Below, piece by piece: positions 1 through 51,171 of a stretch of DNA of 64,000 nt. This stretch comes from Spironucleus salmonicida (lineage: Eukaryota): positions 558,001 to 622,000 of the forward strand of contig NC_090601.1 of NCBI RefSeq assembly GCF_000497125.1, written 5' to 3'. Below the pieces are notes generated by a model. That model did no database searches. It had not been told where the DNA came from and saw only the letters and a list, made by a program, of their open reading frames with translations. Each line of letters begins with the position of its first letter. Positions within the stretch are counted from its first letter, which is position 1. The translations under genes and the position numbers were made by a program.

Positions 1-3000
1 CATGGTTTTAAAGTATAGAAGCAAGGCGGCCAAGTATCAAATATGTAAAGGTCGCAGCATAAAACTGGAAAGAATCAAATCGCGTTAGCGATTAAGTGAA
101 TAACCCGTTTATGTCGCCATCCTATATGCTTTTCTCTATGTCATGTATTTCCACTAAATCATAGTCAAAGCATATTGGCCTGCCTTTCGCACGCAGGCTG
201 TTAGACATTTCTGATACCGGGTGCTTTCTTTTCACAAGTGACTGTTTATCAGCAGGTGCGAAGGCATTCATGCGAACTGCCTACCAGCTATGTTCGTTTG
301 CAGCACTACCAAGCACTGCTCCCGACGGGCGCTGCCGGAGTACGGTGCGGAGCACAGCGGATTCCTCGCCGTTTTCGCAATCGGTGTTGCAGCGAGGAAC
401 CAGAGAGCTCGAGGGAATTTTTATTACCTGCAGTACATTGCCGCCCAACACCTCCGGGAGACAGTGTCTACCCCAACCATGCTTTGTCGTACTAGAGACA
501 TCGCTCCATTGCGGCCTAGCCTTAGTGCGAAGTTTGCTCCAACCGAAATCTCTAAATAAGACATGCACATCCAGTACCGGGCCAGAAAACAATGGAACAT
601 GTTCAATCACGGTGGCTGCTGGTGAGTGCTAGAGCATGCGCCTTCCAGGGTTACACTAGTAATACATCCCACACGCCGCAAACCTGAGCAAGCGAACTAG
701 CACCAGCCCAGGCGCCAGATGGCCGTTTTTCAGGAAGCAAAGCTCCGACCTGTGTACGCTGCAGGTTAGACGCATCCTTTACGGTAGTCCAATATTTTTA
801 GTCAGACCCACTCGCAAAATTTCAGCGATTGGTGGTTGGGTACCAGCAGGACATACTATCGCCTGCGAAAACGATTGCAGCTCACTGCCAAAATCAGTTT
901 TGCAGTTTTCGCGTAGACTACTTCCTGCGCACTGTTCCGTCCATTATTGTAGGCAGTGGTGTTGGCAGCTTCAGTCTTAGACTCAGCCTGGCACCGCAAG
1001 TCTAATTCCTACGGGGCAGCAGACATATGGCTCGTTTGCAGCCAGAAGCCCTGATCACCTAATGCTGTCTAGAATAGGGGCATTGGTACGTGCTGTTGCG
1101 ACTGCAAGAGCCGGTAAACGATGGTTATAACACACGCCCAAAGAGATGCAAGTCCACGTCCGAAGGTTAGCGCCTGACGCTAGATTCTCTGCCGCTCACC
1201 AAGCTGCAAACCTCATCGACCTCCAATTGTCATCCTTGCCTATTGCAGCGGATATGGCATGATGGTAACGAGGAACCGGCGAACACAAAATTGGCTTGGC
1301 GCCAGCCTTCGTCCCGTGTTCGCGCTAGGTTACCATCGAGTGAGGCTGCAATAGCTGCATGCCTCTGGGAATCGCAACGAGAGCCTTCCGCCCTCGAAGT
1401 TCTTTACAATAGCAGCGGTAACCCGGTCTGGAGAGCTTAACAATCTAGTATTCAGCTTTCTTCGCTGCTATTGCTTGATAAAAGTTAGTCCCACTGCAAA
1501 TGCATGTGGTTTCTGCCAGGCGGCGCTGTGTAGACCTGTATGGATGATACTCGGAGAGGAAATACTAGTATCCTCACTGGCAAGGAAAAGAGCACGCCGT
1601 GCACTTGCTCCAGCGCGACATGAATGTAATTGGGAGGGTTATCACGGGAGGTGGGAGCAGCCGTAAATTGTAAAGAAATGCTGCGATGAATCTGAATGCG
1701 GTATGCCCCAGGGTATATCGCTGCATTTGGCAATCGGGCAGCTAGATACATAAGGGTATCATATACGGTCACACCTCGCAGCTTCACGAAATAACCAAAG
1801 CTGATGCTATGAGCACGCCGTGGCAGCTTCGCTCAGCCGTATCGTCATTATCCCGATACCAGGTGCATGCCGAGCTAGCTGCGCCATCATCCACGCATGA
1901 ACTGGGTGTTTGCTGGTAGAGAATGGGCAGCTGGGTATCTATCATCCCCATCCAGGCCTATTCACTTCCGCTGCGAACCTAACCGGACGCAGCTCCTCGC
2001 CTCCTGGGCCCGGCGGAGCCCTGCATCCACGTCAGTGGATCTTGGGAAGGTCTGGTCCTGTCAGACGGGCACCATTGCTCCGAGGCGAGCGAATGGTATC
2101 CCGAGGGCGGGGTACATTCTGGGGAATGGAGCTGTGTGCAAACTCCTCCATTCCCTTCCATTAATTCTAATATTCTCCGTAAAGGTGCGCCCAGCCTCAG
2201 AACCACCGTGCGAAGGCTTATTGCGGTGTTCGGATCGGCTTTTCATACATGCAACCAGTGGAGCGATGGGCGTCCAGCGCGTTCAGTGACGGATCCGGCT
2301 CACTTGTCGTACTGCAGGGTCTCCCGCACCAGGGCTTCCGTATCGGTGAGCGTGGGGCGTGGCACCTCCGCCTGCCGTGTGGTGACGACGGCGCTTCTGC
2401 CCGGGAGCCCGGCACGCCTTTTGAGGTAGAAGAAGGCGATGAGGCCCACCAGGCCCACTGCGACGAAGACCAGCACCACAATACCGGCTATGAGCCCCAT
2501 GGACACGCCGTCCTGGTGGAGCTGCCCGTCCACGCACTGGAACAGCACGGTGTTGAAGGTTTGCCCGGGCTCACATCGTGTGTCCACGCACCTGTCGCGC
2601 ACGAACACGAAGCCCGGGCGGCAGACCGTACAGAGCTCGTTCACCAGGGCGTGTTCGTCGGCGCAGACACTGCACTTGGCCCCGGCGTCCAGCAGGTAGG
2701 TCGAGCACGTGCACACCCCTGCCTCGCACCTGCCCCTGCCTGCGCACTCAGTACCGCTGTGCACGCAGCCGCTCGGCACGCAGGTATCCCCCACGCGCTC
2801 GAAACTAGCCAGACACTACGAGCATCCATGCACCGGGTCCAGGGCTGGGTCCCCGCAGCGACACTCCCCCGAGCCCTCGCAGGTCCCCTGCCCGCTGCAG
2901 ATGGAGCTGCCCGTGATGCACTTCGCTGGGCGGCAGTCGTAGTTGGACGCGTTGCCGAAGTACGCGGCCCCAGGCAAGCAGCCCTGGCACTGTTGCTTCG

Positions 3001-3112
3001 GGTCGTTGAACGGGAAGTTCCCGCAGTCTTTGCAGACGAACTGCGCGTTCTCCAGGGCGCAGGCCCCGCGACCGAAGCACCTCCCGCGCTGCGTCTTGCA
3101 CAGGTCGCGCCC
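1..3112. repeat. Left arm of palindrome A (continues beyond window start)
   Basis: Reverse complement of 6843-9955; mirrored ORF pairs have coordinate sums 9955/9956; only a SNP and a 1-bp indel near 2245/7710 were noticed. Confidence 0.95.
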
Positions 3113-4123
3113 ACATGTCAGTAATGCAGCATTAATCTGCGTATATCCATCATCGCATTCGCAGAACTTCCCACTGCTCCTGTTCTGACAGTTGCACCAC
3201 GTGAAGCTCAGTCCCTCGCACGTCCCGCGCCCACCGCAGACCTTGTCATCGTTCACGCACGCCGGTTTTGCGCACTCTGTCTTGCTGTTCGCGAAGACCA
3301 GCCCCTGCGCGCATAGTTCGCAAGAGCGTCCAGAGAATCCAGGCTCGCAGCGGCACTCTAATCTGTTCATATCACATTTTCCTCTTCCATTACACTCAGT
3401 ATTGCCTGTTTTACAGAGATCGGGAATACATTCACCATCGTGAAGCTAGAATGTCTATTTGCAACCTCTACAATTACTGAAAGATGAGAAATTACCATTA
3501 CAAACACAGAAACCATAAGACTGACACTGACCTTTTCCATTGCAAATAGTATTTCCAGTTATACAGTTAGTACTCAGACATTTTCTATCAGCTGGAGGTG
3601 GGAGAAACCCTTTGCCTGGAAGACATTATGCACATCCTTATCTTGGATCATTATCAGTAAATTCACCGCATCCATTGCAAATGAATTCTTTTTAACCTAA
3701 TTTTTCAACTAATACACATTCAGAACGACCATAGCATAATTAATTTGGAGATTTGCATAAATTAATAACACATTCCTACGAAGATGGGTGTGGCAGGTGA
3801 TCTGGTCCACATTGGCAAAGCTTTCCAGAAAATCCAGGCTTGCACACACATTAATCAAAATTAATTCCACCACAAGACCCATTTCCATTGCAAATTTTAT
3901 CATTTTCAATGCATTTGACATTTGCACATTACTTGCTGTTATTTACAGGTATCATTCCTATCGCACAAGCGTCGCAGTGAAGACCTGTAAAAGTAGGGTC
4001 ACACGAACAAGATTTACTGTCGTTATGACAGAATCCATGATTACTACAAATAATATTATTAAATATACATTCTTTGGCAATGCACATACCTCCAAGAGAT
4101 ACTTGGTTTTCAGGACAAGTCAT
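2300..4123 (-). CDS. Cysteine-rich membrane protein, CRMP2-type (EGF-like CxC/CxxC repeats, C-terminal TM), 607 aa
   Basis: Fragments 3929-4123, 2816-3370 and 2300-2794 are in one frame joined by TAA/TAG=Gln; MTCPENQ...GLIAGIVVLVFVAVGLVGLIAFFYLKRR...QYDK; stop in AAGTGA. Confidence 0.92.
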
Positions 4124-4980
4124 TTTTAAATGAGTGAATTTTAATATTAATAGTATTATTATTAATTAAAAAATATGTATTTGTAATTTTCATTCAATCC
4201 AATATTTTGAATAATATATATTTTTCATTTATATTTACTTATTTAAAAACAAAAAAACAATATATTATTAATAAGTACTTTAAACTAATATAAATTACTA
4301 AGCATTATAAAACAGTATTAATTAATATCCATAAGTAACATTAAAATATTTTGGAATTTTATTATTAAAAATAAATATATGTAATATAAAAATATTATCA
4401 TTATATAATTTCACAGATATTATTAAATGAATATTTTTAACAATAAATTTGATACTTAGAAATAATTCGTATTCTTTTATGATTTGTAGTTTAATTAATT
4501 ACTTGTCAGGTTTAAATTATCCATACTATATTTTAAAATTATAAACATTAGTTTTAATTTATGATAACAACTGAATATATTTGTACTTACTTTAGATGGC
4601 TTATAATAATTTCCATTATAATAGACTTATATAATAGTTTTATTATACAACAAACCTAATCACTTTAAATCAAAAGTAGTATAACTTCTAGTTTAACTTT
4701 GCATTGATATAATTTAATATTTTTATAATATTATAAATAATTTTAATTAGTAGCTAAAACGATAAATAATTATTCATATTTTATTAAAATTTTTTTTTTT
4801 AATTATGTAATTTTCATTCTTGAAGATAATAAAGACATATATATGATAGCAAGTAAAGTAAATACGTTTACATAAATTTATTTATAATTAAAAAATAAGT
4901 ATATTTATTACATAATAAATTTTGTATTTTGTATTAAATAATATATAATAATCTATAATACTTATCATATTCCACTCCAA

Positions 4981-5478
4981 ATGGAAAAATTGGTTCAATA
5001 GTCATTTGAAACTTAGAAACAGTTATTTTCATAACTTTTAAGTACAATGAAAGATAATTTTTCACCAGAGTCTATTAATCTATTACGGTTAGCAATAGAT
5101 GCTGAATTATACCCGTAGGACGCTGATACTGTATCAAAAGAACTTCGTGAACTCACACACTAACAAGTTCCAGAAATGATATAAGAACAATAAGCAGCTA
5201 CAGAACAAGTGTTGATCCATATTGATAAGAAAAAGAAAAAGTCGCGAGGGTTTGATGGTGGATCGTACACTTTTGGATACGAAGTAATCGAGAGTTAACC
5301 TGCAACACTGACGGTAGGTAATAGCTTCATATATTGTGAGCGATCAGGTGATGCATTTGAAATGGCTGAAGATGTCAATACAGGCAAATCTTTTTATGCA
5401 GGATGTGGAGTACTTTAAACAACAGAAGGTCGCTCTGATATTTTCTTTAGTCAAGTACGTGTTAAAGGCAGCCACTGA
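4981..5478 (+). CDS. Hypothetical protein, 165 aa, in palindrome spacer
   Basis: Open in code 6 from CTCCAAATG to TGA: MEKLVQQSFETQKQLF...DKKKKKSRGFDGGSYTFGYEV...QVRVKGSH; less AT-rich than flanks; duplicated at 42430-42927. Confidence 0.75.
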
Positions 5479-6103
5479 TTATATAGTTAAAACGTTTTTA
5501 ATCAAATTACCTCACAAATGAGATATTATACTTATACATATTTTGTTATACATTGATTATATCTACTATGTAAAGATATTAATATTATATTAATTTAACT
5601 AAAATCATTATGTCCTTTATATTAAAAATATTCAGAAGATTAAATTGTTAGTATACTTAAAATTTACTATTGACTATGATGTCTCATCAGATATTTGTTT
5701 TAAATACGCAATATATAGTTCAAAAAAGTCATATTGTGTATCCTAACATATGGTATTATACTCCTAAACATTAAGTTATAATAGTTTACAAAAATAAAAC
5801 AAAATTCTAAATTTCCATACCACTAATTTCTTTATTTTATGCTATAGATTTTTAATTAAATTTATATATTAATACTATTATTTCTTAGTAAGTGATATTC
5901 CAGTATTATTTATTAGAATATGTCTTAAAATAATTCACTTTTAATCTCTTTATACATTTCGTAATAATTGATCATAGTTTTGATTTACACTAGTAAGCTT
6001 TTCTAAACTAATCGGACATATAGTAATATTAATAGTTTTAACTATTAAAAATACCTCTAGACTGAAAATAAGATACTTTCGCAACTAAATTATAATAAAT
6101 ATT

Positions 6104-7655
6104 GTATGCATAGCCAAGTATTGCATTGAATATAATATTATTTGCATAAAATGTGGAGAGAGTGAGAACAACATTCTATACTTGCACTGCGAACCTAACT
6201 TTATAGTCCCATAATGCATAGAGTCTCCAATTAGCACGGTCTCAGCAATCAATCACGCCAAATATTCTTATCCTACGTGTGTCAGAGTAAGGCAAATTTG
6301 TAGCAGATATAGATCATGTTTCTCCGCCAAACCAATAAGTTTCATATGCGAACCAGTTTCTCTTGCAAACTCTAAAAATACACCATATACTTTAGGTACT
6401 TCACCAACCTCTAATTAGAATGTTCCGTAATTTGTTCTTATCAGAAAAAATTTCATGTTAACGCGACAGAAAATCCATTTCAACAGGTTTTGAAAGTACC
6501 CAGCTATTCTCCTGCAAAATATGGAAAACACACACGTATAGACTAAAAAAGGCATTCAATGTATAAAATAATTTTCATATTCTCTACGTCGAAATTCATA
6601 TACGAAGCAATAAATTGTATAACGGGCACCACTGTATTCAACCAAAACTGATCATGTTTACCGCCAGATATCTGCATCTCTGATGGAAACTTCGGCCAAT
6701 CGAACTGCTGCGTTGACTATAAATCAAGGTTTGAGTACCACGCTGGAGCGTGTGTTCGCTTGGTCTGCAAAACCGGTATTATGCTCTGCAATGACCCCAG
6801 AACATGCAAATTCTAACACTAGGAGTGCCTCTGCTGACTTGCGGGCGCGACCTGTGCAAGACGCAGCGCGGGAGGTGCTTCGGTCGCGGGGCCTGCGCCC
6901 TGGAGAACGCGCAGTTCGTCTGCAAAGACTGCGGGAACTTCCCGTTCAACGACCCGAAGCAACAGTGCCAGGGCTGCTTGCCTGGGGCCGCGTACTTCGG
7001 CAACGCGTCCAACTACGACTGCCGCCCAGCGAAGTGCATCACGGGCAGCTCCATCTGCAGCGGGCAGGGGACCTGCGAGGGCTCGGGGGAGTGTCGCTGC
7101 GGGGACCCAGCCCTGGACCCGGTGCATGGATGCTCGTAGTGTCTGGCTAGTTTCGAGCGCGTGGGGGATACCTGCGTGCCGAGCGGCTGCGTGCACAGCG
7201 GTACTGAGTGCGCAGGCAGGGGCAGGTGCGAGGCAGGGGTGTGCACGTGCTCGACCTACCTGCTGGACGCCGGGGCCAAGTGCAGTGTCTGCGCCGACGA
7301 ACACGCCCTGGTGAACGAGCTCTGTACGGTCTGCCGCCCGGGCTTCGTGTTCGTGCGCGACAGGTGCGTGGACACACGATGTGAGCCCGGGCAAACCTTC
7401 AACACCGTGCTGTTCCAGTGCGTGGACGGGCAGCTCCACCAGGACGGCGTGTCCATGGGGCTCATAGCCGGTATTGTGGTGCTGGTCTTCGTCGCAGTGG
7501 GCCTGGTGGGCCTCATCGCCTTCTTCTACCTCAAAAGGCGTGCCGGGCTCCCGGGCAGAAGCGCCGTCGTCACCACACGGCAGGCGGAGGTGCCACGCCC
7601 CACGCTCACCGATACGGAAGCCCTGGTGCGGGAGACCCTGCAGTACGACAAGTGA
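6104..7655 (+). pseudogene. CRMP2 with decayed 5' half fused to the intact 3' half of the repeat arm
   Basis: 6104-6840 gives degenerate matches to the intact gene (VCIAKYCIEYNIIC vs MCIAKECIFNNIIC; ACVRLVCKTG vs ECIPDLCKTG) with frameshifts, a TGA and a deletion; 6843-7655 mirrors 2300-3112. An ATG at 6804 could give a 283-aa product. Confidence 0.8.
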
Positions 7656-10600
7656 GCCGGATCCGTCACTGAACGCGCTGGACGCCCATCGCTCCACTGG
7701 CTGCATGTATGGAAAAGCCGATCCGAACACCGCAATAAGCCTTCGCACGGTGGTTCTGAGGCTGGGCGCACCTTTACGGAGAATATTAGAATTAATGGAA
7801 GGGAATGGAGGAGTTTGCACACAGCTCCATTCCCCAGAATGTACCCCGCCCTCGGGATACCATTCGCTCGCCTCGGAGCAATGGTGCCCGTCTGACAGGA
7901 CCAGACCTTCCCAAGATCCACTGACGTGGATGCAGGGCTCCGCCGGGCCCAGGAGGCGAGGAGCTGCGTCCGGTTAGGTTCGCAGCGGAAGTGAATAGGC
8001 CTGGATGGGGATGATAGATACCCAGCTGCCCATTCTCTACCAGCAAACACCCAGTTCATGCGTGGATGATGGCGCAGCTAGCTCGGCATGCACCTGGTAT
8101 CGGGATAATGACGATACGGCTGAGCGAAGCTGCCACGGCGTGCTCATAGCATCAGCTTTGGTTATTTCGTGAAGCTGCGAGGTGTGACCGTATATGATAC
8201 CCTTATGTATCTAGCTGCCCGATTGCCAAATGCAGCGATATACCCTGGGGCATACCGCATTCAGATTCATCGCAGCATTTCTTTACAATTTACGGCTGCT
8301 CCCACCTCCCGTGATAACCCTCCCAATTACATTCATGTCGCGCTGGAGCAAGTGCACGGCGTGCTCTTTTCCTTGCCAGTGAGGATACTAGTATTTCCTC
8401 TCCGAGTATCATCCATACAGGTCTACACAGCGCCGCCTGGCAGAAACCACATGCATTTGCAGTGGGACTAACTTTTATCAAGCAATAGCAGCGAAGAAAG
8501 CTGAATACTAGATTGTTAAGCTCTCCAGACCGGGTTACCGCTGCTATTGTAAAGAACTTCGAGGGCGGAAGGCTCTCGTTGCGATTCCCAGAGGCATGCA
8601 GCTATTGCAGCCTCACTCGATGGTAACCTAGCGCGAACACGGGACGAAGGCTGGCGCCAAGCCAATTTTGTGTTCGCCGGTTCCTCGTTACCATCATGCC
8701 ATATCCGCTGCAATAGGCAAGGATGACAATTGGAGGTCGATGAGGTTTGCAGCTTGGTGAGCGGCAGAGAATCTAGCGTCAGGCGCTAACCTTCGGACGT
8801 GGACTTGCATCTCTTTGGGCGTGTGTTATAACCATCGTTTACCGGCTCTTGCAGTCGCAACAGCACGTACCAATGCCCCTATTCTAGACAGCATTAGGTG
8901 ATCAGGGCTTCTGGCTGCAAACGAGCCATATGTCTGCTGCCCCGTAGGAATTAGACTTGCGGTGCCAGGCTGAGTCTAAGACTGAAGCTGCCAACACCAC
9001 TGCCTACAATAATGGACGGAACAGTGCGCAGGAAGTAGTCTACGCGAAAACTGCAAAACTGATTTTGGCAGTGAGCTGCAATCGTTTTCGCAGGCGATAG
9101 TATGTCCTGCTGGTACCCAACCACCAATCGCTGAAATTTTGCGAGTGGGTCTGACTAAAAATATTGGACTACCGTAAAGGATGCGTCTAACCTGCAGCGT
9201 ACACAGGTCGGAGCTTTGCTTCCTGAAAAACGGCCATCTGGCGCCTGGGCTGGTGCTAGTTCGCTTGCTCAGGTTTGCGGCGTGTGGGATGTATTACTAG
9301 TGTAACCCTGGAAGGCGCATGCTCTAGCACTCACCAGCAGCCACCGTGATTGAACATGTTCCATTGTTTTCTGGCCCGGTACTGGATGTGCATGTCTTAT
9401 TTAGAGATTTCGGTTGGAGCAAACTTCGCACTAAGGCTAGGCCGCAATGGAGCGATGTCTCTAGTACGACAAAGCATGGTTGGGGTAGACACTGTCTCCC
9501 GGAGGTGTTGGGCGGCAATGTACTGCAGGTAATAAAAATTCCCTCGAGCTCTCTGGTTCCTCGCTGCAACACCGATTGCGAAAACGGCGAGGAATCCGCT
9601 GTGCTCCGCACCGTACTCCGGCAGCGCCCGTCGGGAGCAGTGCTTGGTAGTGCTGCAAACGAACATAGCTGGTAGGCAGTTCGCATGAATGCCTTCGCAC
9701 CTGCTGATAAACAGTCACTTGTGAAAAGAAAGCACCCGGTATCAGAAATGTCTAACAGCCTGCGTGCGAAAGGCAGGCCAATATGCTTTGACTATGATTT
9801 AGTGGAAATACATGACATAGAGAAAAGCATATAGGATGGCGACATAAACGGGTTATTCACTTAATCGCTAACGCGATTTGATTCTTTCCAGTTTTATGCT
9901 GCGACCTTTACATATTTGATACTTGGCCGCCTTGCTTCTATACTTTAAAACCATGCTATTGCTACAGATCAAATTGAAAAAGTATCGAACTAATAATATT
10001 TGGCTATCATATTTTACTTGCCGAGTACACTTTCGATACATCTTACTATGCATGGACATCGTTGTACCCAATATTAAGGATTGAAAATGCCTTCAGTTTT
10101 AATATCAAGAAGCTTATGCTAAATTGAAATTCAAAATTATGGCTGAGCAGAGCGGGCTGTTATGGTACAGTGAATTAATTATATCAGTTGATGGCAGTAG
10201 CAGCGACTCCAGCGGCCTTGCGGGCCTTCTTCACGGCAATGTACGCCACAGCGCCAACGCTGAAGGTCAAAATACCAATAGCAGCAGCAGCTCCAAGGTA
10301 GGTGCTAATACCAAGAGTATCGCGTGTGAGCTCCTACTTGACTTCCCCATCCGCTTTTTAGTTTTACAATTTCCATTCCAGAGCAGTTAAGCACATACCA
10401 TATGTATTTTTCTGCATGTTGGGTAGGCATTTCAAGCATCCCTTATGGTTAGAATTGCAAAGGGCGCAGTTTTAGGAGTTCCCACAGTTGCATTAAGATG
10501 TTATGTTTTCATGGCACGGTTCAGGTAACCCGTCATTGCAGTAAAATCCAAGTGGAATGTTTTCACACTTCGACGTACAAAGCCCAGTAGTGGTTAAGAC

Positions 10601-12215: not shown

Positions 12216-12238
12216 ACAGAACATAGTGTGTAATGCAT
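10184..12238 (-). CDS. CRMP1-type cysteine-rich membrane protein, 5'-truncated/chimeric copy (about 684 aa if ATG 12238 is used)
   Basis: Same reading frame as 35362-37725 from about codon 112 on, ending TM + KKARKAAGVAATAIN; native 5' end replaced by unrelated sequence; has GGA where the B copies have TGA. May be a pseudogene. Confidence 0.65.
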
Positions 12239-19627: not shown

Positions 19628-19921
19628 ATGACTGTTGAGAACCCAATAGAAATAGACCCGCCGTGCTACCTATCATAGAATGATGTGCTGTGCCGATGCA
19701 AGACACCATACTATGCGGAGTGCCAGCGGTGCGCGGGGTGCCTCAACGTCCTGATACCTGGGTGCGGGCTGTATGCCGGCGCGTGTTGCTGCCTTGGCGA
19801 ATGCTGCCAGCGTGGGGCCTGCCAGATCGCATGCGCCGGACTGTACATGTTCCTGTTCGCCCCGCTGCTGGTCGGCTGGGGGCTAAGCGTGGTCGTGGGC
19901 GTGAGGATGATGCTGTAGTGA
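19628..19921 (+). CDS. Small Cys-rich membrane protein, Spec3/Stum-like, 97 aa
   Basis: LNVLIPGCG and LFAPLLVGWGLSVVVG resemble the LNxxxPGxG and xPxxVGWxxSxxxG motifs of the Spec3/Stum family (recognised by eye); stop in TAGTGA. Confidence 0.7.
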
Positions 19922-38000: not shown

Positions 38001-41000
38001 AAGGTCGCAGCATAAAACTGGAAAGAATCAAATCGCGTTAGCGATTAAGTGAATAACCCGTTTATGTCGCCATCCTATATGCTTTTCTCTATGTCATGTA
38101 TTTCCACTAAATCATAGTCAAAGCATATTGGCCTGCCTTTCGCACGCAGGCTGTTAGACATTTCTGATACCGGGTGCTTTCTTTTCACAAGTGACTGTTT
38201 ATCAGCAGGTGCGAAGGCATTCATGCGAACTGCCTACCAGCTATGTTCGTTTGCAGCACTACCAAACACTGCTCCCGACGGGCGCTGCCGGAGTACGGTG
38301 CGGAGCACAGCGGATTCCTCGCCGTTTTCGCAATCGGCGTTGCAGCGAGGAACCAGAGAGCTCGAGGGAATTTTTATTACCTGCAGTACATTGCCGCACA
38401 ACACCTCCGGGAGACAGTGTCTACCCCAACCATGCTTTGTCGTACTAGAGACATCGCTCCATTGCGACCTAGCCTTAGCGCGAAGTTTGCTCCCACCGAA
38501 ATCTCTAAATAAGGCATGCACATCCAGTACCAGGCCAGAAAACAATGGAACATGTTCAATCACGGTGGCTGCTGGTGAGTGCTAGAGCATGCGCCTTCCA
38601 GGGTTACACTAGTAATACATCCCACACGCCGCAAACCTGAGCAAGCGAACTAGCACCAGCCCAGGCACCAGATGGCCGTTTTTCAGGAAGCAAAGCTCCG
38701 ACCTGTGTACGCTGCAGGTTAGACGCATCCTTTACGGTAGTCCAATATTTTTAGTCAGACCCACTCGCAAAATTTCAGCGATTGGTGGTTGGGTACCAGC
38801 AGGACATACTATCGCCTGCGAAAACGATTGCAGCTCACTGCCAAAATCAGTTTTGCAGTTTTCGCGTAGACTACTTCCTGCGCACTGTTCCGTCCATTAT
38901 TGTAGGCAGTGGTGTTGGCAGCTTCAGTCTTAGACTCAGCCTGGCACCGCAAGTCTAATTCCTACGGGGCAGCAGACATATGGCTCGTTTGCAGCCAGAA
39001 GCCCTGTCTACCTAATGCTGTCTAGAATAGGGGCATTGGTACGTGCTGTTGCGACTGCAAGAGCCGGTAAACGATGGCTATGGCACACGCCCAAAGAGAT
39101 GCAAGTCCACGTCCGAAGGTTAGCGCCTGACGCTAGATTCTCTGCCGCTCACCAAGCTACAAACCTCATCGACCTCCAATTGTCATCCTTGCCTATTGCA
39201 GCGGATATGGCATGATGGTAACGAGGAACCGGCGAACACAAAATTGGCTTGGCGCCAGCCTTCGTCCCGTGTTCGCGCTAGGTTACCATCGAGTGAGGCT
39301 GCAATAGCTGCATGCCTCTGGGAATCGCAACGAGAGCCTTCCGCCCTCGAAGTTCTTTACAATAGCAGCGGTAACCCGGTCTGGAGAGCTTAACAATCTA
39401 GCATTCAGCTTTCTTCGCTGCCATTGATTGATAAAACTTAGTCCCACTGCAAATGCATGTGGTTTCTGCCAGGCGGCGCTGTGTAGACCTGTATGGATGA
39501 TACTCGGAGAGGAAATACTAGTATCATCACGGGCGAGGAAAAGAGCACGCCGTGCACTTGCTCCAGCACGACATGGATGTAATTGGGAGGGTTATCACGG
39601 GAGGTGGGAGCAGCCGTAAATTGTAAAGAAATGCTGCGATGAATCTGAATGCGGTATGCCACAGGGTATATCGCTGCATTTGGCAATCGGGCAGCTAGAT
39701 ACATAAGGGTATCATATACGGTCACACTTCGCAGCTTCACGAAACAACTAAAGCTGATGCTATGAGCACGCCGCGGCAGCTTCGGTTAGCCGTATCGCCA
39801 TTATCTCGATACCAGGTGCATGCCGAGCTAGCTGCGGTATCATCCGCGCAGGAACTGGGTGTTTGCTGGTAGAGAATGGGCAGCTTGGTATCTATCATCC
39901 CCATCCAGGCCTATTCACTTCCGCTGCGAACCTAACCGGACGCAGCTCCTCGCCTCCTGGGCCCGGCGGAGCCCTGCATCCACGTCAGTGGATCTTGGGA
40001 AGGTCTGGTCCTGTCAGACGGGCGCCGTTGCTCCGAGGCGAGCGAATGGTATCCCGAGGGCGGGTTACATTCTGGGGAATGGAGCTGTGTGCAAACCCCT
40101 CCATTCCCTTCCATTAATTCTAATATTCTCCGTAAAGGTGCGCCCAGCCTCAGAACCACCGTGCGAAGGCTTATTGCGGTGTTCGGATCGGCTTTTCATA
40201 CATGCAACCAGTGGAGCGATGGGCGTCCAGCGCGTTCAGTGACGGATCCGGCTCACTTGTCGTACTGCAGGGTCTCCCGCACCAGGGCTTCCGTATCGGT
40301 GGGCGTGGGGCGTGGCACCTCCGCCTGCCGTGTGGTGACGACGGCGCTTCTGCCCGGGAGCCAGGCACGCCTTTTGAGGTAGAAGAAGGCGATGAGGCCC
40401 ACCAGGCCCACTGCGACGAAGACCAGCACCACAATACCGGCTATGAGCCCCATGGACACGCCGTCCTGGTGGAGCTGCCCGTCCACGCACTGGAACAGCA
40501 CGGTGTTGAAGGTTTGCCCGGGCTCACATCGTGTGTCCACGCACCTGTCGCGCACGAACACGAAGCCCGGGCGGCAGACCGTACAGAGCTCGTTCACCAG
40601 GGCGTGTTCGTCGGCGCAGACACTGCACTTGGCCCCGGCGTCCAGCAGGTAGGTCGAGCACGTGCACACCCCTGCCTCGCACCTGCCCCTGCCTGCGCAC
40701 TCAGTACCGCTGTGCACGCAGCCGCTCGGCACGCAGGTATCCCCCACGCGCTCGAAACTAGCCAGACACTACGAGCATCCATGCACCGGGTCCAGGGCTG
40801 GGTCCCCGCAGCGACACTCCCCCGAGCCCTCGCAGGTCCCCTGCCCGCTGCAGATGGAGCTGCCCGTGATGCACTTCGCTGGGCGGCAGTCGTAGTTGGA
40901 CGCGTTGCCGAAGTACGCGGCCCCAGGCAAGCAGCCCTGGCACTGTTGCTTCGGGTCGTTGAACGGGAAGTTCCCGCAGTCTTTGCAGACGAACTGCGCG

Positions 41001-41065
41001 TTCTCCAGGGCGCAGGCCCCGCGACCGAAGCACCTCCCGTACTGCGTCTTGCACAGGTCGCGCCC
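35005..41065. repeat. Left arm of palindrome B (~6.06 kb)
   Basis: Reverse complement of 44796-50856 (coordinate sum 85861); only a few mismatches noticed (near 38398, 38668, 41040). Confidence 0.96.
35362..37725 (+). pseudogene. CRMP1-type gene, 787 codons, with one in-frame TGA at codon 123 (35728-35730)
   Basis: Otherwise fully open in code 6: MGRWSTCTIKKNGC..., three ~246-aa Cys modules, TM, KKARK tail. Pseudogene unless the TGA is read through. Confidence 0.8.
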
Positions 41066-41804
41066 GCAAGTCAGCAGAGGCACTCCTAGTGTTAGAATTT
41101 GCATGTTCTGGGGTCATTGCAGAGCATAATACCGGTTTTGCAGACCAAGCGAACACACTCTCCATCGTGGTACTCAAACCTTGATTTATAGTCAACGCAG
41201 CAGTTCGATTGGCCAAAGTTTCCATCAGAGATGCAGATATCTGGCGGTAAACATGATCAGTTTTAGTTGAATACAGTGGCGCCGGTTATACCATTTATTG
41301 CTTCGCATATGAATTTCGACGTAGAGAATATGAAAATTATTTTATACATTGAATGCCTTTTTTAGTCTATACGTGTGTGTTTTCCATATTTTGCAGGAGA
41401 ATAGCTGGGTACTTTCAAAACCTGTTAAAATGGATTTTCTGTCGCGTTAACATGAAATTTTTTCTGATAAGGACAAATTACGGAACTTTCTAATTAGATG
41501 TTGGCGAAGTACTTAAAGTACATGTTGTATTTTTAGAGTTTGCAAGAGAAACTGGTTCGCATATGAAACTTATTGGTTTGACGGAGAAACATGATCTATA
41601 TCTGCTACAAATTTGCTTTTCTATGGTACAAGTAGGATAAGAATATTTGGCGTTATTGCTTGCTGAGACCGTGCTAATTGGACACTCTATGCATTATGGG
41701 ACTATAAAGTTAGGTTCGCAGTGAAAGTACAGAATGTTGTTCTCACTCTCTCCACAGTTTATGCAAATAATATTATATTCAATGCAATACTTGGCTATGC
41801 ATAC
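40253..41804 (-). pseudogene. CRMP2 with decayed 5' half, second copy
   Basis: Inverted copy of 6104-7655 with additional substitutions in the decayed part. Confidence 0.8.
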
Positions 41805-42429
41805 AATATTTATTATAATTTAGTTGCGAAAGTATCTTATTTTCAGTCTAGAGGTATTTTTAATAGTTAAAACTATTAATATTACTATATGTCCGATTAG
41901 TTTAGAAAAGCTTACTAGTGTAAATCAAAACTATGATCAATTATTACGAAATGTATAAAGAGATTAAAAGTGAATTATTTTAAGACATATTCTAATAAAT
42001 AATACTGGAATATCACTTACTAAGAAATAATAGTATTAATATATAAATTTAATTAAAAATCTATAGCATAAAATAAAGAAATTAGTGGTATGGAAATTTA
42101 GAATTTTGTTTTATTTTTGTAAACTATTATAACTTAATGTTTAGGAGTATAATACCATATGTTAGGATACACAATATGACTTTTTTGAACTATATATTGC
42201 GTATTTAAAACAAATATCTGATGAGACATCATAGTCAATAGTAAATTTTAAGTATACTAACAATTTAATCTTCTGAATATTTTTAATATAAAGGACATAA
42301 TGATTTTAGTTAAATTAATATAATATTAATATCTTTACATAGTAGATATAATCAATGTATAACAAAATATGTATAAGTATAATATCTCATTTGTGAGGTA
42401 ATTTGATTAAAAACGTTTTAACTATATAA

Positions 42430-42927
42430 TCAGTGGCTGCCTTTAACACGTACTTGACTAAAGAAAATATCAGAGCGACCTTCTGTTGTTTAAAGTACTC
42501 CACATCCTGCATAAAAAGATTTGCCTGTATTGACATCTTCAGCCATTTCAAATGCATCACCTGATCGCTCACAATATATGAAGCTATTACCTACCGTCAG
42601 TGTTGCAGGTTAACTCTCGATTACTTCGTATCCAAAAGTGTACGATCCACCATCAAACCCTCGCGACTTTTTCTTTTTCTTATCAATATGGATCAACACT
42701 TGTTCTGTAGCTGCTTATTGTTCTTATATCATTTCTGGAACTTGTTAGTGTGTGAGTTCACGAAGTTCTTTTGATACAGTATCAGCGTCCTACGGGTATA
42801 ATTCAGCATCTATTGCTAACCGTAATAGATTAATAGACTCTGGTGAAAAATTATCTTTCATTGTACTTAAAAGTTATGAAAATAACTGTTTCTAAGTTTC
42901 AAATGACTATTGAACCAATTTTTCCAT
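42430..42927 (-). CDS. Hypothetical protein, 165 aa, second copy
   Basis: Inverted copy of 4981-5478. Confidence 0.75.
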
Positions 42928-43784
42928 TTGGAGTGGAATATGATAAGTATTATAGATTATTATATATTATTTAATACAAAATACAAAATTTATTATGTAA
43001 TAAATATACTTATTTTTTAATTATAAATAAATTTATGTAAACGTATTTACTTTACTTGCTATCATATATATGTCTTTATTATCTTCAAGAATGAAAATTA
43101 CATAATTAAAAAAAAAAATTTTAATAAAATATGAATAATTATTTATCGTTTTAGCTACTAATTAAAATTATTTATAATATTATAAAAATATTAAATTATA
43201 TCAATGCAAAGTTAAACTAGAAGTTATACTACTTTTGATTTAAAGTGATAAGGTTTGTTGTATAATAAAACTATTATATAAGTCTATTATAATGGAAATT
43301 ATTATAAGCCATCTAAAGTAAGTACAAATATATTCAGTTGTTATCATAAATTAAAACTAATGTTTATAATTTTAAAATATAGTATGGATAATTTAAACCT
43401 GACAAGTAATTAATTAAACTACAAATCATAAAAGAATACGAATTATTTCTAAGTATCAAATTTATTGTTAAAAATATTCATTTAATAATATCTGTGAAAT
43501 TATATAATGATAATATTTTTATATTACATATATTTATTTTTAATAATAAAATTCCAAAATATTTTAATGTTACTTATGGATATTAATTAATACTGTTTTA
43601 TAATGCTTAGTAATTTATATTAGTTTAAAGTACTTATTAATAATATATTGTTTTTTTGTTTTTAAATAAGTAAATATAAATGAAAAATATATATTATTCA
43701 AAATATTGGATTGAATGAAAATTACAAATACATATTTTTTAATTAATAATAATACTATTAATATTAAAATTCACTCATTTAAAA

Positions 43785-45608
43785 ATGACTTGTCCTGAAA
43801 ACCAAGTATCTCTTGGAGGTATGTGCATTGCCAAAGAATGTATATTTAATAATATTATTTGTAGTAATCATGGATTCTGTCATAACGACAGTAAATCTTG
43901 TTCGTGTGACCCTACTTTTACAGGTCTTCACTGCGACGCTTGTGCGATAGGAATGATACCTGTAAATAACAGCAAGTAATGTGCAAATGTCAAATGCATT
44001 GAAAATGATAAAATTTGCAATGGAAATGGGTCTTGTGGTGGAATTAATTTTGATTAATGTGTGTGCAAGCCTGGATTTTCTGGAAAGCTTTGCCAATGTG
44101 GACCAGATCACCTGCCACACCCATCTTCGTAGGAATGTGTTATTAATTTATGCAAATCTCCAAATTAATTATGCTATGGTCGTTCTGAATGTGTATTAGT
44201 TGAAAAATTAGGTTAAAAAGAATTCATTTGCAATGGATGCGGTGAATTTACTGATAATGATCCAAGATAAGGATGTGCATAATGTCTTCCAGGCAAAGGG
44301 TTTCTCCCACCTCCAGCTGATAGAAAATGTCTGAGTACTAACTGTATAACTGGAAATACTATTTGCAATGGAAAAGGTCAGTGTCAGTCTTATGGTTTCT
44401 GTGTTTGTAATGGTAATTTCTCATCTTTCAGTAATTGTAGAGGTTGCAAATAGACATTCTAGCTTCACGATGGTGAATGTATTCCCGATCTCTGTAAAAC
44501 AGGCAATACTGAGTGTAATGGAAGAGGAAAATGTGATATGAACAGATTAGAGTGCCGCTGCGAGCCTGGATTCTCTGGACGCTCTTGCGAACTATGCGCG
44601 CAGGGGCTGGTCTTCGCGAACAGCAAGACAGAGTGCGCAAAACCGGCGTGCGTGAACGATGACAAGGTCTGCGGTGGGCGCGGGACGTGCGAGGGACTGA
44701 GCTTCACGTGGTGCAACTGTCAGAACAGGAGCAGTGGGAAGTTCTGCGAATGCGATGATGGATATACGCAGATTAATGCTGCATTACTGACATGTGGGCG
44801 CGACCTGTGCAAGACGCAGCGCGGGAGGTGCTTCGGTCGCGGGGCCTGCGCCCTGGAGAACGCGCAGTTCGTCTGCAAAGACTGCGGGAACTTCCCGTTC
44901 AACGACCCGAAGCAACAGTGCCAGGGCTGCTTGCCTGGGGCCGCGTACTTCGGCAACGCGTCCAACTACGACTGCCGCCCAGCGAAGTGCATCACGGGCA
45001 GCTCCATCTGCAGCGGGCAGGGGACCTGCGAGGGCTCGGGGGAGTGTCGCTGCGGGGACCCAGCCCTGGACCCGGTGCATGGATGCTCGTAGTGTCTGGC
45101 TAGTTTCGAGCGCGTGGGGGATACCTGCGTGCCGAGCGGCTGCGTGCACAGCGGTACTGAGTGCGCAGGCAGGGGCAGGTGCGAGGCAGGGGTGTGCACG
45201 TGCTCGACCTACCTGCTGGACGCCGGGGCCAAGTGCAGTGTCTGCGCCGACGAACACGCCCTGGTGAACGAGCTCTGTACGGTCTGCCGCCCGGGCTTCG
45301 TGTTCGTGCGCGACAGGTGCGTGGACACACGATGTGAGCCCGGGCAAACCTTCAACACCGTGCTGTTCCAGTGCGTGGACGGGCAGCTCCACCAGGACGG
45401 CGTGTCCATGGGGCTCATAGCCGGTATTGTGGTGCTGGTCTTCGTCGCAGTGGGCCTGGTGGGCCTCATCGCCTTCTTCTACCTCAAAAGGCGTGCCTGG
45501 CTCCCGGGCAGAAGCGCCGTCGTCACCACACGGCAGGCGGAGGTGCCACGCCCCACGCCCACCGATACGGAAGCCCTGGTGCGGGAGACCCTGCAGTACG
45601 ACAAGTGA
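43785..45608 (+). CDS. CRMP2-type cysteine-rich membrane protein, 607 aa
   Basis: Continuous code-6 ORF; differs from 2300-4123 in the tail (KRRAWLP/PTPT vs KRRAGLP/PTLT). Confidence 0.92.
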
Positions 45609-45630
45609 GCCGGATCCGTCACTGAACGCG
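45604..45630 (+). promoter_or_regulatory. AGTGA stop/poly(A)-type signal followed by candidate 3' UTR element TCACTGAACGCG
   Basis: The same 12-mer lies at the same distance from the stop of the unrelated CRMP1 at 51172; TCACTGTAC at the same distance after 37725. Confidence 0.55.
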
Positions 45631-48135
45631 CTGGACGCCCATCGCTCCACTGGTTGCATGTATGAAAAGCCGATCCGAACACCGCAATAAGCCTTCGCAC
45701 GGTGGTTCTGAGGCTGGGCGCACCTTTACGGAGAATATTAGAATTAATGGAAGGGAATGGAGGGGTTTGCACACAGCTCCATTCCCCAGAATGTAACCCG
45801 CCCTCGGGATACCATTCGCTCGCCTCGGAGCAACGGCGCCCGTCTGACAGGACCAGACCTTCCCAAGATCCACTGACGTGGATGCAGGGCTCCGCCGGGC
45901 CCAGGAGGCGAGGAGCTGCGTCCGGTTAGGTTCGCAGCGGAAGTGAATAGGCCTGGATGGGGATGATAGATACCAAGCTGCCCATTCTCTACCAGCAAAC
46001 ACCCAGTTCCTGCGCGGATGATACCGCAGCTAGCTCGGCATGCACCTGGTATCGAGATAATGGCGATACGGCTAACCGAAGCTGCCGCGGCGTGCTCATA
46101 GCATCAGCTTTAGTTGTTTCGTGAAGCTGCGAAGTGTGACCGTATATGATACCCTTATGTATCTAGCTGCCCGATTGCCAAATGCAGCGATATACCCTGT
46201 GGCATACCGCATTCAGATTCATCGCAGCATTTCTTTACAATTTACGGCTGCTCCCACCTCCCGTGATAACCCTCCCAATTACATCCATGTCGTGCTGGAG
46301 CAAGTGCACGGCGTGCTCTTTTCCTCGCCCGTGATGATACTAGTATTTCCTCTCCGAGTATCATCCATACAGGTCTACACAGCGCCGCCTGGCAGAAACC
46401 ACATGCATTTGCAGTGGGACTAAGTTTTATCAATCAATGGCAGCGAAGAAAGCTGAATGCTAGATTGTTAAGCTCTCCAGACCGGGTTACCGCTGCTATT
46501 GTAAAGAACTTCGAGGGCGGAAGGCTCTCGTTGCGATTCCCAGAGGCATGCAGCTATTGCAGCCTCACTCGATGGTAACCTAGCGCGAACACGGGACGAA
46601 GGCTGGCGCCAAGCCAATTTTGTGTTCGCCGGTTCCTCGTTACCATCATGCCATATCCGCTGCAATAGGCAAGGATGACAATTGGAGGTCGATGAGGTTT
46701 GTAGCTTGGTGAGCGGCAGAGAATCTAGCGTCAGGCGCTAACCTTCGGACGTGGACTTGCATCTCTTTGGGCGTGTGCCATAGCCATCGTTTACCGGCTC
46801 TTGCAGTCGCAACAGCACGTACCAATGCCCCTATTCTAGACAGCATTAGGTAGACAGGGCTTCTGGCTGCAAACGAGCCATATGTCTGCTGCCCCGTAGG
46901 AATTAGACTTGCGGTGCCAGGCTGAGTCTAAGACTGAAGCTGCCAACACCACTGCCTACAATAATGGACGGAACAGTGCGCAGGAAGTAGTCTACGCGAA
47001 AACTGCAAAACTGATTTTGGCAGTGAGCTGCAATCGTTTTCGCAGGCGATAGTATGTCCTGCTGGTACCCAACCACCAATCGCTGAAATTTTGCGAGTGG
47101 GTCTGACTAAAAATATTGGACTACCGTAAAGGATGCGTCTAACCTGCAGCGTACACAGGTCGGAGCTTTGCTTCCTGAAAAACGGCCATCTGGCGCCTGG
47201 GCTGGTGCTAGTTCGCTTGCTCAGGTTTGCGGCGTGTGGGATGTATTACTAGTGTAACCCTGGAAGGCGCATGCTCTAGCACTCACCAGCAGCCACCGTG
47301 ATTGAACATGTTCCATTGTTTTCTGGCCTGGTACTGGATGTGCATGCCTTATTTAGAGATTTCGGTGGGAGCAAACTTCGCGCTAAGGCTAGGTCGCAAT
47401 GGAGCGATGTCTCTAGTACGACAAAGCATGGTTGGGGTAGACACTGTCTCCCGGAGGTGTTGGGCGGCAATGTACTGCAGGTAATAAAAATTCCCTCGAG
47501 CTCTCTGGTTCCTCGCTGCAACGCCGATTGCGAAAACGGCGAGGAATCCGCTGTGCTCCGCACCGTACTCCGGCAGCGCCCGTCGGGAGCAGTGTTTGGT
47601 AGTGCTGCAAACGAACATAGCTGGTAGGCAGTTCGCATGAATGCCTTCGCACCTGCTGATAAACAGTCACTTGTGAAAAGAAAGCACCCGGTATCAGAAA
47701 TGTCTAACAGCCTGCGTGCGAAAGGCAGGCCAATATGCTTTGACTATGATTTAGTGGAAATACATGACATAGAGAAAAGCATATAGGATGGCGACATAAA
47801 CGGGTTATTCACTTAATCGCTAACGCGATTTGATTCTTTCCAGTTTTATGCTGCGACCTTTACATATTTGATACTTGGCCGCCTTGCTTCTATACTTTAA
47901 AACCATGCTATTGCTACAGAGGAAATTGAAAAAGTATCGAACTAAAAATATTTGGCTATCATATTTTACTTGCCGAGTACACTTTCGATACATCTTACTA
48001 TGCATGGACATCGTTGTACCCAATATTAAGGATTGAAAATGCCTTCAGTTTTAATATCAAGAAGCTTATGCTAAATTGAAATTCAAAATTATGGCTGAGC
48101 AGAGCGGGCTGTTATGGTACAGTGAATTAATTATA

Positions 48136-50499
48136 TCAGTTGATGGCAGTAGCAGCGACTCCAGCGGCCTTGCGGGCCTTCTTCACGGCAATGTACGCCA
48201 CAGCGCCAACGCTGAAGGTCAAAATACCAATAGCAGCAGCAGCTCCAAGGTAGGTGCTAATACCAAGAGTATCGCGTGTGAGCTCCTACTTGACTTCCCC
48301 ATCCGCTTTTTAGTTTTACAATTTCCATTCCAGAGCAGTTAAGCACATACCATATGTATTTTTCTGCATGTTGGGTAGGCATTTCAAGCATCCCTTATGG
48401 TTAGAATTGCAAAGGGCGCAGTTTTAGGAGTTCCCACAGTTGCATTAAGATGTTATGTTTTCATGGCACGGTTCAGGTAACCCGTCATTGCAGTAAAATC
48501 CAAGTGGAATGTTTTCACACTTCGACGTACAAAGCCCAGTAGTGGTTAAGACATAATTGCGATCTTCGCATTTATCGCAAAAAGTTGCCGAACTGCAAAA
48601 ACTACATCCAGCAGGACATTCGGTGCAGCGCTTCGTGTCGGTGTCGCAAAAGCTTGCAATCGCCTTGGCGCAGTCCTGGTTCGTTTCGCACTTGTTACTG
48701 CATGTGTTGGCTGCTTAATCTAATATGAAAGTTTAAGCACACGTTAAGCACTTTTGCTATTCGTCACACTCGTAACATCCAGAAAGGCATTTTGGGTGAC
48801 TCGGAACATGCTCTTTGTGGTCATACTGACTTCTAGTGCATTAACCATTCACGCACTCGACGCAGTTTTTACTTGGCACGTGGTCCGCGCAGTAACACGA
48901 CTCGCCAAGCGCCATATCCTCGCGGCAGAGCTAGCACTAGACGCGTTGAGAGCCAACGGCGGGGCAAAAGTAGCCAGCCTTGCACGTCGGCTGCTCGCTT
49001 GTGCATGAGCCCGACACCTCGGGGTCCACTCTTACTGCAACACACAGGTCCCCTATATGCGCATAGCCCCTTTGGCATAGCTGGCAATCTCCTTTTCCGC
49101 TTAGGGCGAAACGGGAAAAGCACGATGCACACTTTCCGGTCTGCGTGCAGGTGGCACAGTTTTGCGAATCACTACACCTGCACTGCGACGTGATGCCTCC
49201 CTCGCATCCTGCCGGCGCTCCGTTATTGCAGTAGAAGCTGCCTAGCAGGTAATCGCATTTCGGGGTGCAAAGTCCAGCTGTCGTTGTGACATAGTTGCTT
49301 GGGTCGCACTTTTCGCAGAAGTCGCTCGCACTGCATTTCAGGCACCCCGCTTGGCATGCCGTGCACCGCTTAGAGCCCGTGTCGCAGAAGCTTCCCAGTG
49401 CCATTTCGCAATCTTTGTTGTTCTAGCAATAATTGTTGCATGTGTTGGAGTTTTCGTCGTAAACATAGGTTTGAGCGCACCTTAAGCACGTCCTGTTTTC
49501 ATCACACTCGAAGCAGCCGTGATGGCACTTGTGAAGAGGTGTCGTGTGGTCGTGCTGGGCGATATGGTACTAGCCACAGGAGAGCCCTGCGCATTGTATG
49601 CAGTTAGCTGTGGGGATATAATCAACGCAATAGCATGATTGTTCGAGAGTCATGTTCTCATTGCACTTTTGGCATTTTACAAAAAACTTATCCACGGCGG
49701 GGCAGAAGAAGCCAGCCCTGCAGCCTTATACGGATAGGGAGCATGTGCCAGCCTCTGCCTGCGAATATTGGGTTGGAACGCAAGTTTAGGCTTTGATCTC
49801 GTACCCCGGCGCGCACTAGAAGCAGTTCCCATACTCGTTAATCTAATAATTGGGTAAGCATGCATGGCAGTTCCCGTAGATCGAGCAGGTTGCGCAGTTG
49901 TCCCCGCTCTTGCACCTGCATGCTGAGGTGATGCCCTCAAAGCACGGCTCTTACTTTCCCTCATTGCAGTAAAAGCCCTCTTCCAGGTCCTTGCATCCCG
50001 CCGTGCACGTCCCATTACTATTTAGGACGTCCTCTTTCTAAATGCACTTATAGCAGAAATCTTATGACAAGCATCCCCCACAGAACTCGCCGCAGTGCTT
50101 GCATTGGTGCGTATCCTCATTACAGTAATATCAATCCGTCTGGTTGCAATTTGTGTTATCGCGGCATGCAGGAACGCACTGGGCTCTGGCATCGTCAAAA
50201 ACGTACTGGTCTGCACATTTATTGCATTTTTAAGGATAGTAGCAATCTACACACCCGTCTGGACAAGATATACAGTTGCCGTTAAATAGGAAATAACCAA
50301 CGACACATTTCTTGCAATTTTCATTACTGCAAAATATGCAGTTCGGCTTCTCATCGTACGGGCGGCAGTTGCATCCGAAGCCAGCGGTGATGGCATAGGA
50401 ACATTTCTCACACTTCACCGGAGTTTCGTCCGTTGCGGGGCAATATTCATCTAGGTGGCAGCCATTTTTCTTGATTGTGCAAGTTGACCAACGTCCCAT
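48136..50499 (-). pseudogene. CRMP1-type gene with in-frame TGA at 50131-50133 (mirror of 35362-37725)
   Basis: Mirror copy in the palindrome B right arm, sharing the internal TGA. Confidence 0.8.
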
Positions 50500-51171
50500 T
50501 TTGGAGATTTTAGTAAAATGGTAACGCCATAATAGACACAAAATAAGTATAGTAAGTTTCTTGGTAAATTTAGATTCTTTAATTATAAAATTTATCAGAG
50601 AGGCTGTAGATGGAAATTTAAGATTTGTGTATATAATAATACTAAATGAATGAAGTATAATATATTTTGTATAGAAAATTAAGTGCATATTGATATTGGT
50701 GGGGTTTAACAATATTTTAGACGTTGGTATAGATTCTTTAAAGCGAGTTAAAAACTATTTAAAACTAAATGAGGAGTTGTTTAGAATTATTTGTGGTTTG
50801 CTTGGTTAATAGGTTGGGTATTATTATGGGCGATAAGTAGTATTTTTAATATTATAATTAATTATGAGACTTATAAAATTTATGTGTTTACTTATTATTT
50901 GAATGGATGTATATCATATAAATTTTATAAAATCCGCTTTAGGGGTTTATAAAACTAAAAAAAATAACTTAGTTTATTCGTTATCACTGAATGAATTAAA
51001 TTATCTTATATCTATTCTACACGTAGCAACACCACTTTGATTGTAATTCCCATACATACTATCTACCTCACTGAACATTTCAGAATTCCTTCCTAGAGAG
51101 TATTTACTGCTTCTTTACATATTATGGTGGAAACCTGTAAAATATCATACGCGTTCAGTGAATTAATTAGA

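Follow-up and report, generated by a model that had tools for sequence, protein, structure and literature searches.

The window analysed here, a stretch of 64,000 nucleotides from Spironucleus salmonicida (contig NC_090601.1, positions 558,001 to 622,000; G000:C6:558001-622000), was read with NCBI table 6 and contains two large palindromes, A and B. Each has two near-identical inverted arms around a unique spacer, and the inner edge of the arms falls inside a gene for a cysteine-rich membrane protein, CRMP2. A and B are probably two copies of an old gene-bearing palindrome (a spacered inverted repeat) in a CRMP region, whose symmetry is maintained by ordinary homologous recombination, with GC-biased gene conversion from arm to arm. 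The coordinates of the features are collected in Table 1. Papers are cited by PMC number.

Structure of the two palindromes

Palindrome ends were mapped by self-comparison of the window, and then with 60 kb of upstream and 40 kb of downstream sequence added. The inner arm ends that an earlier, sequence-only reading of the window had reported (3112/6843 in A and 41065/44796 in B) were returned exactly, as was its spacer length of 3730 bp in A and B alike. It had also seen correctly that the two spacers point opposite ways, that the 5' half of the intact CRMP2 meets the left arm in palindrome A but the right arm in palindrome B, and that the inner ends lie in coding sequence. The edge is at codon 337 of the 607 amino acid CRMP2. 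Position 9955, which it gave as the end of unit A, is merely the mirror of window base 1, and the arms run for 16.5 kb to ∼23382. The outer ends of unit B, given there as 35005 and 50856, are at 35009 and 50852.

Arm identity around the unique spacer exceeded 99% in both palindromes (99.5% in A, including the patch described below, and 99.9% in B). The palindromes are not the product of chance: when the window was shuffled locally, 10 times over, inverted matches of at least 95% identity reached no more than 17-23 bp. A and B have in common a block of 14.5 kb at 98.8% identity, running from 2263 bases upstream of the window to 12219 and from 35690 to 50171, which ends at mirror positions in both arms. 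They lie as a 14.5-kb inverted pair, 23.5 kb apart. The genome search for further copies that had been proposed with the sequence-only reading found two spacers and four arms (two strong matches among 11 for the spacer, four among five for the arm and two for the decayed half of CRMP2).

Both palindromes are real. The data of all eight sequencing runs listed consisted of contigs, with no joints reported and no piece that spans an arm. Contigs of two DNA-labelled runs begin or end at 35009/35038, 35758, 41042/41065 and 44825, which are the branch points of the assembly. Contig depth, which is not a strict copy number, was 10.6 in the flank, 24.7 in the B-only arm, ∼42 in the shared arm and 22.9 in the spacer in one run, and 134, 348, ∼600 and 249 respectively in the other, a ratio near 1:2:4:2. 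Both runs represent one sample, possibly the assembled one, and no second isolate. An assembly artefact, in which the arms are fold-backs or A and B are two haplotypes placed in tandem, would account for near-identical arms in an organism with two diploid nuclei, and the supporting runs may be the assembled sample itself. This explanation, already allowed for by the sequence-only reading, is very unlikely: depth steps and branch points agree, there are arm-specific differences plus a 26%-divergent patch between the A arms, the left-arm type of that patch stands in a separate protein record (P0009), base composition shifts within one gene, and the flanks of A and B differ. The depth steps and branch points disfavour an artefact subject to the same-sample caveat.

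Conversion between arms and GC enrichment

A four-arm alignment covered 5375 shared arm bases. Sixty-six of the 76 variable sites were fixed in both A arms and different in both B arms, 10 were singletons, and none grouped the left arm of one palindrome with the right arm of the other. An in-frame TGA in the CRMP1 gene of B was found in both B arms, and a rearrangement junction at 12216-12219 was found in both A arms. The arms demonstrably recombine within each palindrome, in concerted evolution.

A tract of ∼3.7 kb almost without A/B differences (Table 1) reads as a recent conversion between A and B that took in the greater part of CRMP2 together with the spacer gene. A/B divergence of the arms was 1.4%. 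The broken CRMP2 half carries 29 A/B differences in 692 bp, and the segment 6151-6749 compared with 41159-41757 diverges by 4.2%, three times the arm rate, which suggests a duplication older than the arms imply.

GC content at third codon positions (GC3) along CRMP2 was 59/255 in the codons before 256, 54/79 in codons 256-334 and 235/270 in the arm, with a change point at codons 251-271. Palindromes were also surveyed (arms of at least 500 bp and at least 95% identity, spacer below 20 kb) in 564 kb of the 14.5 Mb genome, made up of 200 kb each of C1 and C4 at a fixed offset and 164 kb around the window. Eight were counted in C1, eight in C4 and five in the window region including A and B, a total of 21 or about one per 27 kb sampled, and the arms were GC-richer than the spacers in all 21. 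GC enrichment, judged by these GC3 steps and by the survey, was confined to present or putative former arm sequence. These data point to GC-biased conversion in the arms. The chromosome-scale genome paper describes 19.2% of the genome as duplicated, GC-rich sequence and suggests gene conversion (PMC9509377). Its available text, supplements aside, makes no mention of inverted repeats or palindromes, and PMC3916229 makes no mention of an inverted, palindromic or head-to-head arrangement. A search that covered neither supplements nor subscription journals found no paper describing palindromes in Spironucleus.

Several observations weigh against the reading of A and B as two copies of an old palindrome maintained by conversion. 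The 66 A/B differences have no net weak-to-strong direction (32 versus 27, unpolarised and with no outgroup), thus the case for GC bias is one of composition. Residual homology between the spacer ends was present in only 3 of the 21 palindromes (A, B and one other), which makes a centre formed by half genes atypical. Of 84 arm edges, 26 lay in long open reading frames (ORFs), a smaller share than among random positions (2833 of 6000), in a crude test under the table 6 code. Finally, contig depth and branch points may stem from the assembled sample itself.

Position of the arm edge inside CRMP2

CRMP2 proteins are defined by at least three CXXC/CXC motifs, a C-terminal transmembrane (TM) segment and no [KR][KR]X[KR][KR] motif (PMC3916229). 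The 607 amino acid protein fits this definition, with 10 CXXC, 9 CXC, 12.9% cysteine, no [KR][KR]X[KR][KR] and a hydrophobic C-terminal stretch judged by eye. The half gene at the other end of the spacer, taken in the sequence-only reading for a decayed CRMP2 5' half, is a distant paralog with 30-38% protein identity that is out of register with the arm. The last 163 bases of this decayed end align without gaps to codons 205-259 with 86 matches, and the match then jumps to codon 335. Over 1658 offsets the mean was 40.6 matches (standard deviation 6.1), the next best offset gave 66 and the register without a deletion gave 39. This register implies that 226 bp were lost on the decayed side and that the frame was shifted. 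The arm appears once to have begun near codon 255-270, the deletion moving the edge to codon 337; the edge would thus lie inside CRMP2 because of a deletion and not because of a crossover site, and the decayed half is not a cassette. An in-register homeologous junction (LLTC versus LLTC) was considered and rejected, as the upstream homology stops at codon 259.

The following history is proposed. The centre would have been a head-to-head pair of CRMP2 paralogs, with arms then starting near codon 255-270, as GC3 and the residual homology suggest. Conversion would have held the outward sequence identical, which is what the arms display, and presumably GC-rich, while the 5' halves diverged. Next, 226 bp of inner arm would have gone missing on one side, throwing that side out of frame, displacing the edge to codon 337 and leaving that side to decay; the register shows the loss, and the order of events is the probable one. 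Finally the unit came to be present twice, as the inverted pair described above, itself patchily converted. An arm crossover may now and then invert the spacer, as is established for such structures.

The pairing of an intact with a decayed gene recurs at the outer edge of A, where the 5' halves are not exchanged. The intact 556 amino acid CRMP2 there (23350-25020) has a reversed GC3 gradient, 0.6-0.78 in codons 1-240 and 0.17-0.3 in the last 240, and its 5' half is now single-copy. It is perhaps a former arm with a lost partner.

A probable patch of segmental conversion in CRMP1

The 500 amino acid CRMP1 copies of the two A arms differ at 29 residues, 28 of which lie inside a patch of 256 bp; these are ectodomain residues, and the cysteines are kept. 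The left-arm counterpart of the patch is G000:C6:554422-554677, and a broken CRMP1 in block X, beside B, lies 38 kb from the right-arm copy. Block X and the right-arm CRMP1 agree in 254 of the 256 bases of the patch, whereas 65 bases separate X from the left-arm copy there. In the 900 bases before it both A arms match block X almost perfectly, and in the 3' part compared both are ∼30% different. Only three places in the genome match the patch, and none is a donor for the left-arm type, which is also carried by the P0009 record; the right arm was therefore read as the changed copy. The simplest reading, with a presumed direction, is a conversion from block X into the right arm, of which the left arm then received only a part. 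The real antigen variation of the locus lies further out than the CRMP2 edge, in the CRMP1 patch. It is conceivable, though less likely than not, that the inverted repeats serve as a relay by which patches of broken CRMP1 copies reach first one arm and later its partner, so that surface proteins diversify during infection.

A fossil rearrangement is visible at 12216-12219, 50171 and 53818, where a CRMP1 in A lacks its 5' end and instead runs into an inverted block, with a 6-base match near the joint. The right-arm CRMP1 of B keeps its own 5' end, and beside B the two CRMP1 genes stand in tandem.

Consequences of spacer inversion

The sequence-only reading had proposed that the core can flip and thereby choose which arm is expressed. 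The geometry permits a flip and the arms do recombine, as the 66 shared sites indicate; the choice is not supported, since the 3' halves of the arms are identical. The two orientations would then give neither different products nor an on/off state. No difference separates the A arms over 858 bases; the stop codon of CRMP2 is complete at base 813, with the nearest differences 46 and 56 nucleotides past it. Poly(A) is added ∼14 nucleotides after the stop in S. salmonicida (PMC3916229). The first differences are thus beyond the expected 3' untranslated region and a flip would leave the mRNA of A unchanged; the earlier caution that a flip is nearly silent at the protein level was well founded. The B arms differ in one codon, at arm bases 25-26, which is their sole coding difference. 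It moves with the spacer for a crossover anywhere in the other 99.6% of the arm, and a flip would alter the mRNA of B solely through a crossover in the 26 bp next to the edge. Passive inversion of the spacer through arm crossover is plausible given concerted evolution; it would yield the same gene and be a neutral by-product rather than an antigen switch.

Inversion systems of the RecA type require neither a site-specific recombinase nor short crossover sites. Tyrosine and serine recombinase profiles (PF00589 and PF00239), which recovered 14/14 and 12/14 controls, had no match in the genome, although this is not proof of absence. There was one strong match to the Rad51 family, and no short common motif was seen at the six edges. 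Two further runs, from one study, are guessed to be RNA. Their contigs, which give neither strand nor level, cross the two junctions of B, at the intact half (43777-44830) as well as at the broken half (41010-41723). Among the pieces listed, letters unlike the B allele numbered 1 over 66 diagnostic sites and 4 over 65 in these runs; the DNA runs gave 22 over 42 and 23 over 48. The figures hint, weakly, at more transcription from B than from A and at both sides of B being read.

Regulated flip-flop phase variation would involve frequent inversion, with the orientation picking the expressed arm or altering expression through chromatin context. The geometry fits, the edge lies within a surface-protein gene, and the species is without the RNA interference (RNAi) genes that regulate Giardia VSPs (PMC3916229). 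Yet the alternative 3' parts are identical, the second half is a broken, out-of-frame paralog, the edges share no short motif and no recombinase was matched, and the context on either side is identical for 6 or 16.5 kb. That RNA-guessed contigs cross both B junctions is also, weakly, unlike an either/or choice. Such a system is extremely improbable here. Scarcely more probable is a variant in which the spacers invert at a high rate by Rad51-family recombination, and their orientation alters expression of the intact CRMP2 or of an orphan spacer gene by a long-range position effect. If true, it would be recombinase-free inversion switching in a parasite without RNAi and, with palindromes every ∼27 kb sampled, the genome would amount to a mosaic of cassettes that can invert. 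Orientation switching with an effect on expression would bear on CRMP control without RNAi; the sequence argues against it.

Origin of the opposite orientation

Compatible with two copies of an old, conversion-maintained palindrome, and different only in the origin of the opposite orientation, is a history in which B is a direct copy of A and one spacer was later inverted by arm crossover, with populations maybe polymorphic for orientation and no functional effect. This is a genuine possibility, somewhat short of even. In its favour, the arms recombine, and in primate X palindromes ∼50% of the spacers have opposite orientations in different species (PMC8327919). Against it, conversions far exceed inversions in human P6 (PMC3723533). 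Block X on the B side matches the right arm of A at 64 sites of the 256-bp patch and the left arm at one, yet this is better read as a recent conversion, as the difference is ∼0.5% over 1.2 kb compared with 1.4% between the A and B arms, beside ∼30% in the same gene; orienting A against B through block X was rejected on this ground. Near-identical local duplicates were more often inverted than direct (24 versus 10), and the A/B inverted pair therefore requires no flip. The spacer orientation of A, across 16.5-kb arms, may itself be uncertain in the assembly.

The sequence-only reading had rightly cautioned that an inverted duplication of the unit looks the same. None of the 76 arm sites is phase-informative for a flip, concerted evolution having erased the phase, and no unique flank common to A and B was found outside the symmetric arms in the 60 kb upstream and 40 kb downstream compared. 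The opposite spacers therefore cannot separate a flip from an inverted duplication, and B is not orientable against A.

Comparison with known systems

In Giardia intestinalis there are 14 inverted pairs of identical vsp genes, separated by 2190-3847 bp (Adam et al. 2010, PMC2996952), and Giardia muris has seven, with genes or pseudogenes between them (PMC7641422). These too are diplomonad cysteine-rich surface-protein genes, head-to-head or tail-to-tail with an abrupt end of identity, and the 3.73-kb spacer is within their range. In the Giardia pairs, however, identity ends 139-729 bp outside complete identical ORFs, whereas here it ends inside the ORF at codon 337 and the partner is broken; the arms here also measure 6-16.5 kb and carry several genes, and there are two copies of the unit. 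The locus has neither two complete identical ORFs nor an edge outside coding sequence, and works like a Giardia-type pair in degenerate form.

Primate palindromes undergo GC-biased conversion (PMC8981503) in multi-kb tracts, with inversions rare (PMC3723533), and on the primate X deletions concentrate at the spacer and inner arm (PMC8327919). Arms more than 99% identical by conversion, GC enrichment, multi-kb tracts and an inner-arm deletion are all likenesses to the palindromes of the primate X and Y, in which spacer inversions are mostly harmless. Those described here differ in belonging to a protist, in lying on ordinary chromosomes, in being far smaller and about one per 27 kb sampled, and in a much sharper change of GC, with GC3 going from 0.23 to 0.87 inside a single gene.

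Inversion is the mechanism at the sap locus of Campylobacter fetus. There a flip-flop joins one 5' part to different 3' parts (PMC3887049). As in such loci, inverted repeats flank a segment and a promoter-bearing 5' part could join either of two 3' parts; known flip-flop loci occur in both orientations and either have unlike 3' parts or switch a promoter off, whereas here the alternatives are identical, no recombinase or site was found, and a second orientation did not turn up in the contigs, none of which spans an arm.

Segmental conversion from silent copies is known from the mosaic VSGs of trypanosomes and from Borrelia vlsE; here there is one event, and its direction is the presumed one. 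The 256-bp block common to a broken and an intact CRMP1, with 28 ectodomain residues changed, is also like the segmental conversion of Giardia psi-VSP genes (PMC7641422).

On this reading the locus offers a natural record of the life history of a palindrome in a protist, with sister palindromes as an internal control for arm-to-arm conversion. The deletion marks how a palindrome edge moves, and the half-propagated patch how CRMP1 ectodomains turn mosaic. The 6-kb arms and unique flanks of B make it a convenient place to determine the crossover-to-conversion ratio in a diplomonad.

Other features of the locus

Table 1. Features of palindromes A and B and their surroundings (window positions unless marked G000:C6)
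Feature	Position	Strand	Description
Palindrome A left arm	G000:C6:544574-561112; window-visible 1..3112		16.5 kb, not 3.1 kb
Spacer A	3113..6842		3730 bp, GC ∼0.30
Palindrome A right arm	6843..23382 (end approximate)		99.5% identical to left arm including patch
Palindrome B left arm	35009..41065		6057 bp, 4 differences from right arm
Spacer B	41066..44795		Reverse of spacer A; 30 differences, 29 within broken paralog half
Palindrome B right arm	44796..50852		B arms 99.9% identical
Intact CRMP2 of A	2300..4123	-	607 aa, EGF-like repeats, C-terminal TM, no KKXKK motif; codons 1-337 spacer, 338-607 arm
Intact CRMP2 of B	43785..45608	+	607 aa, 2 residues unlike A
Putative former inner arm segment	3121..3346	-	226 bp, GC3-rich, CRMP2 codons 260-335, without counterpart on other side
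Broken 5' half of distant CRMP2 paralog	6050..6842	+	Frameshifts and stops; 30-38% aa identity; not in frame with arm
5'-less CRMP2 remnant	6804..7655	+	283-codon ORF; public protein collection has 283-aa protein of same sequence
Intact CRMP2 paralog at outer edge of A	23350..25020	-	556 aa; cut by outer edge, decayed paralog beyond other outer edge
A-B near-identical tract	2411..6150		∼3.7 kb, 1 difference versus ∼53 expected at arm rate
CRMP1 with KKARK tail	10184..12219	-	5'-truncated in both A arms, fused at 12216-12219 to inverted block
CRMP1	13237..14739	+	500 aa; left-arm mirror copy, just upstream of window, named 'Cysteine-rich membrane protein 1 [Spironucleus salmonicida]'
Candidate conversion patch	13278..13533	+	256 bp; 66 differences versus left-arm copy, 2 versus broken CRMP1 at 51172-52881
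Block X	51736..53818		Contains broken CRMP1; duplicates 12216-14298 in inverted orientation; probable partner of A right arm in conversion
Orphan spacer gene	4981..5478 (A), 42430-42927 (B)	+ in A	165 aa, two genomic copies

The only homolog of the orphan spacer protein among 15 candidates of 90-289 residues was the protein itself, and the longer, 211-codon frame of the gene had no Pfam family. Contigs of two RNA-guessed runs start and stop close to the ends of this gene. The stretch 7656-10183 and its three mirror copies, 2.5 kb of ∼50% GC between the convergent CRMP2 and CRMP1 tails, is where the 1.4% A/B divergence is concentrated. Two ORFs in it had no Pfam family, and it is continuously covered by RNA-guessed contigs. 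Both A arms carry a 394 amino acid ORF (19997-21181) without a Pfam match, whose motif pattern may resemble that of a DEDD-type exonuclease.

Three further palindromes lie within 60 kb, at G000:C6:504846-508910, 528124-539231 and 626252-645775, with arms of 1.6, 3.6 and 6.1 kb; two have CRMP-like genes tail to tail and one has a 1048-codon gene in its spacer. A low-complexity, AT-rich tandem array of ∼600 bp, partly self-complementary, occupies G000:C6:539805-540450. Single-copy neighbours in the window are a dihydrouridine synthase (30169-31659) and a transmembrane RING E3 ligase (57258-59435).

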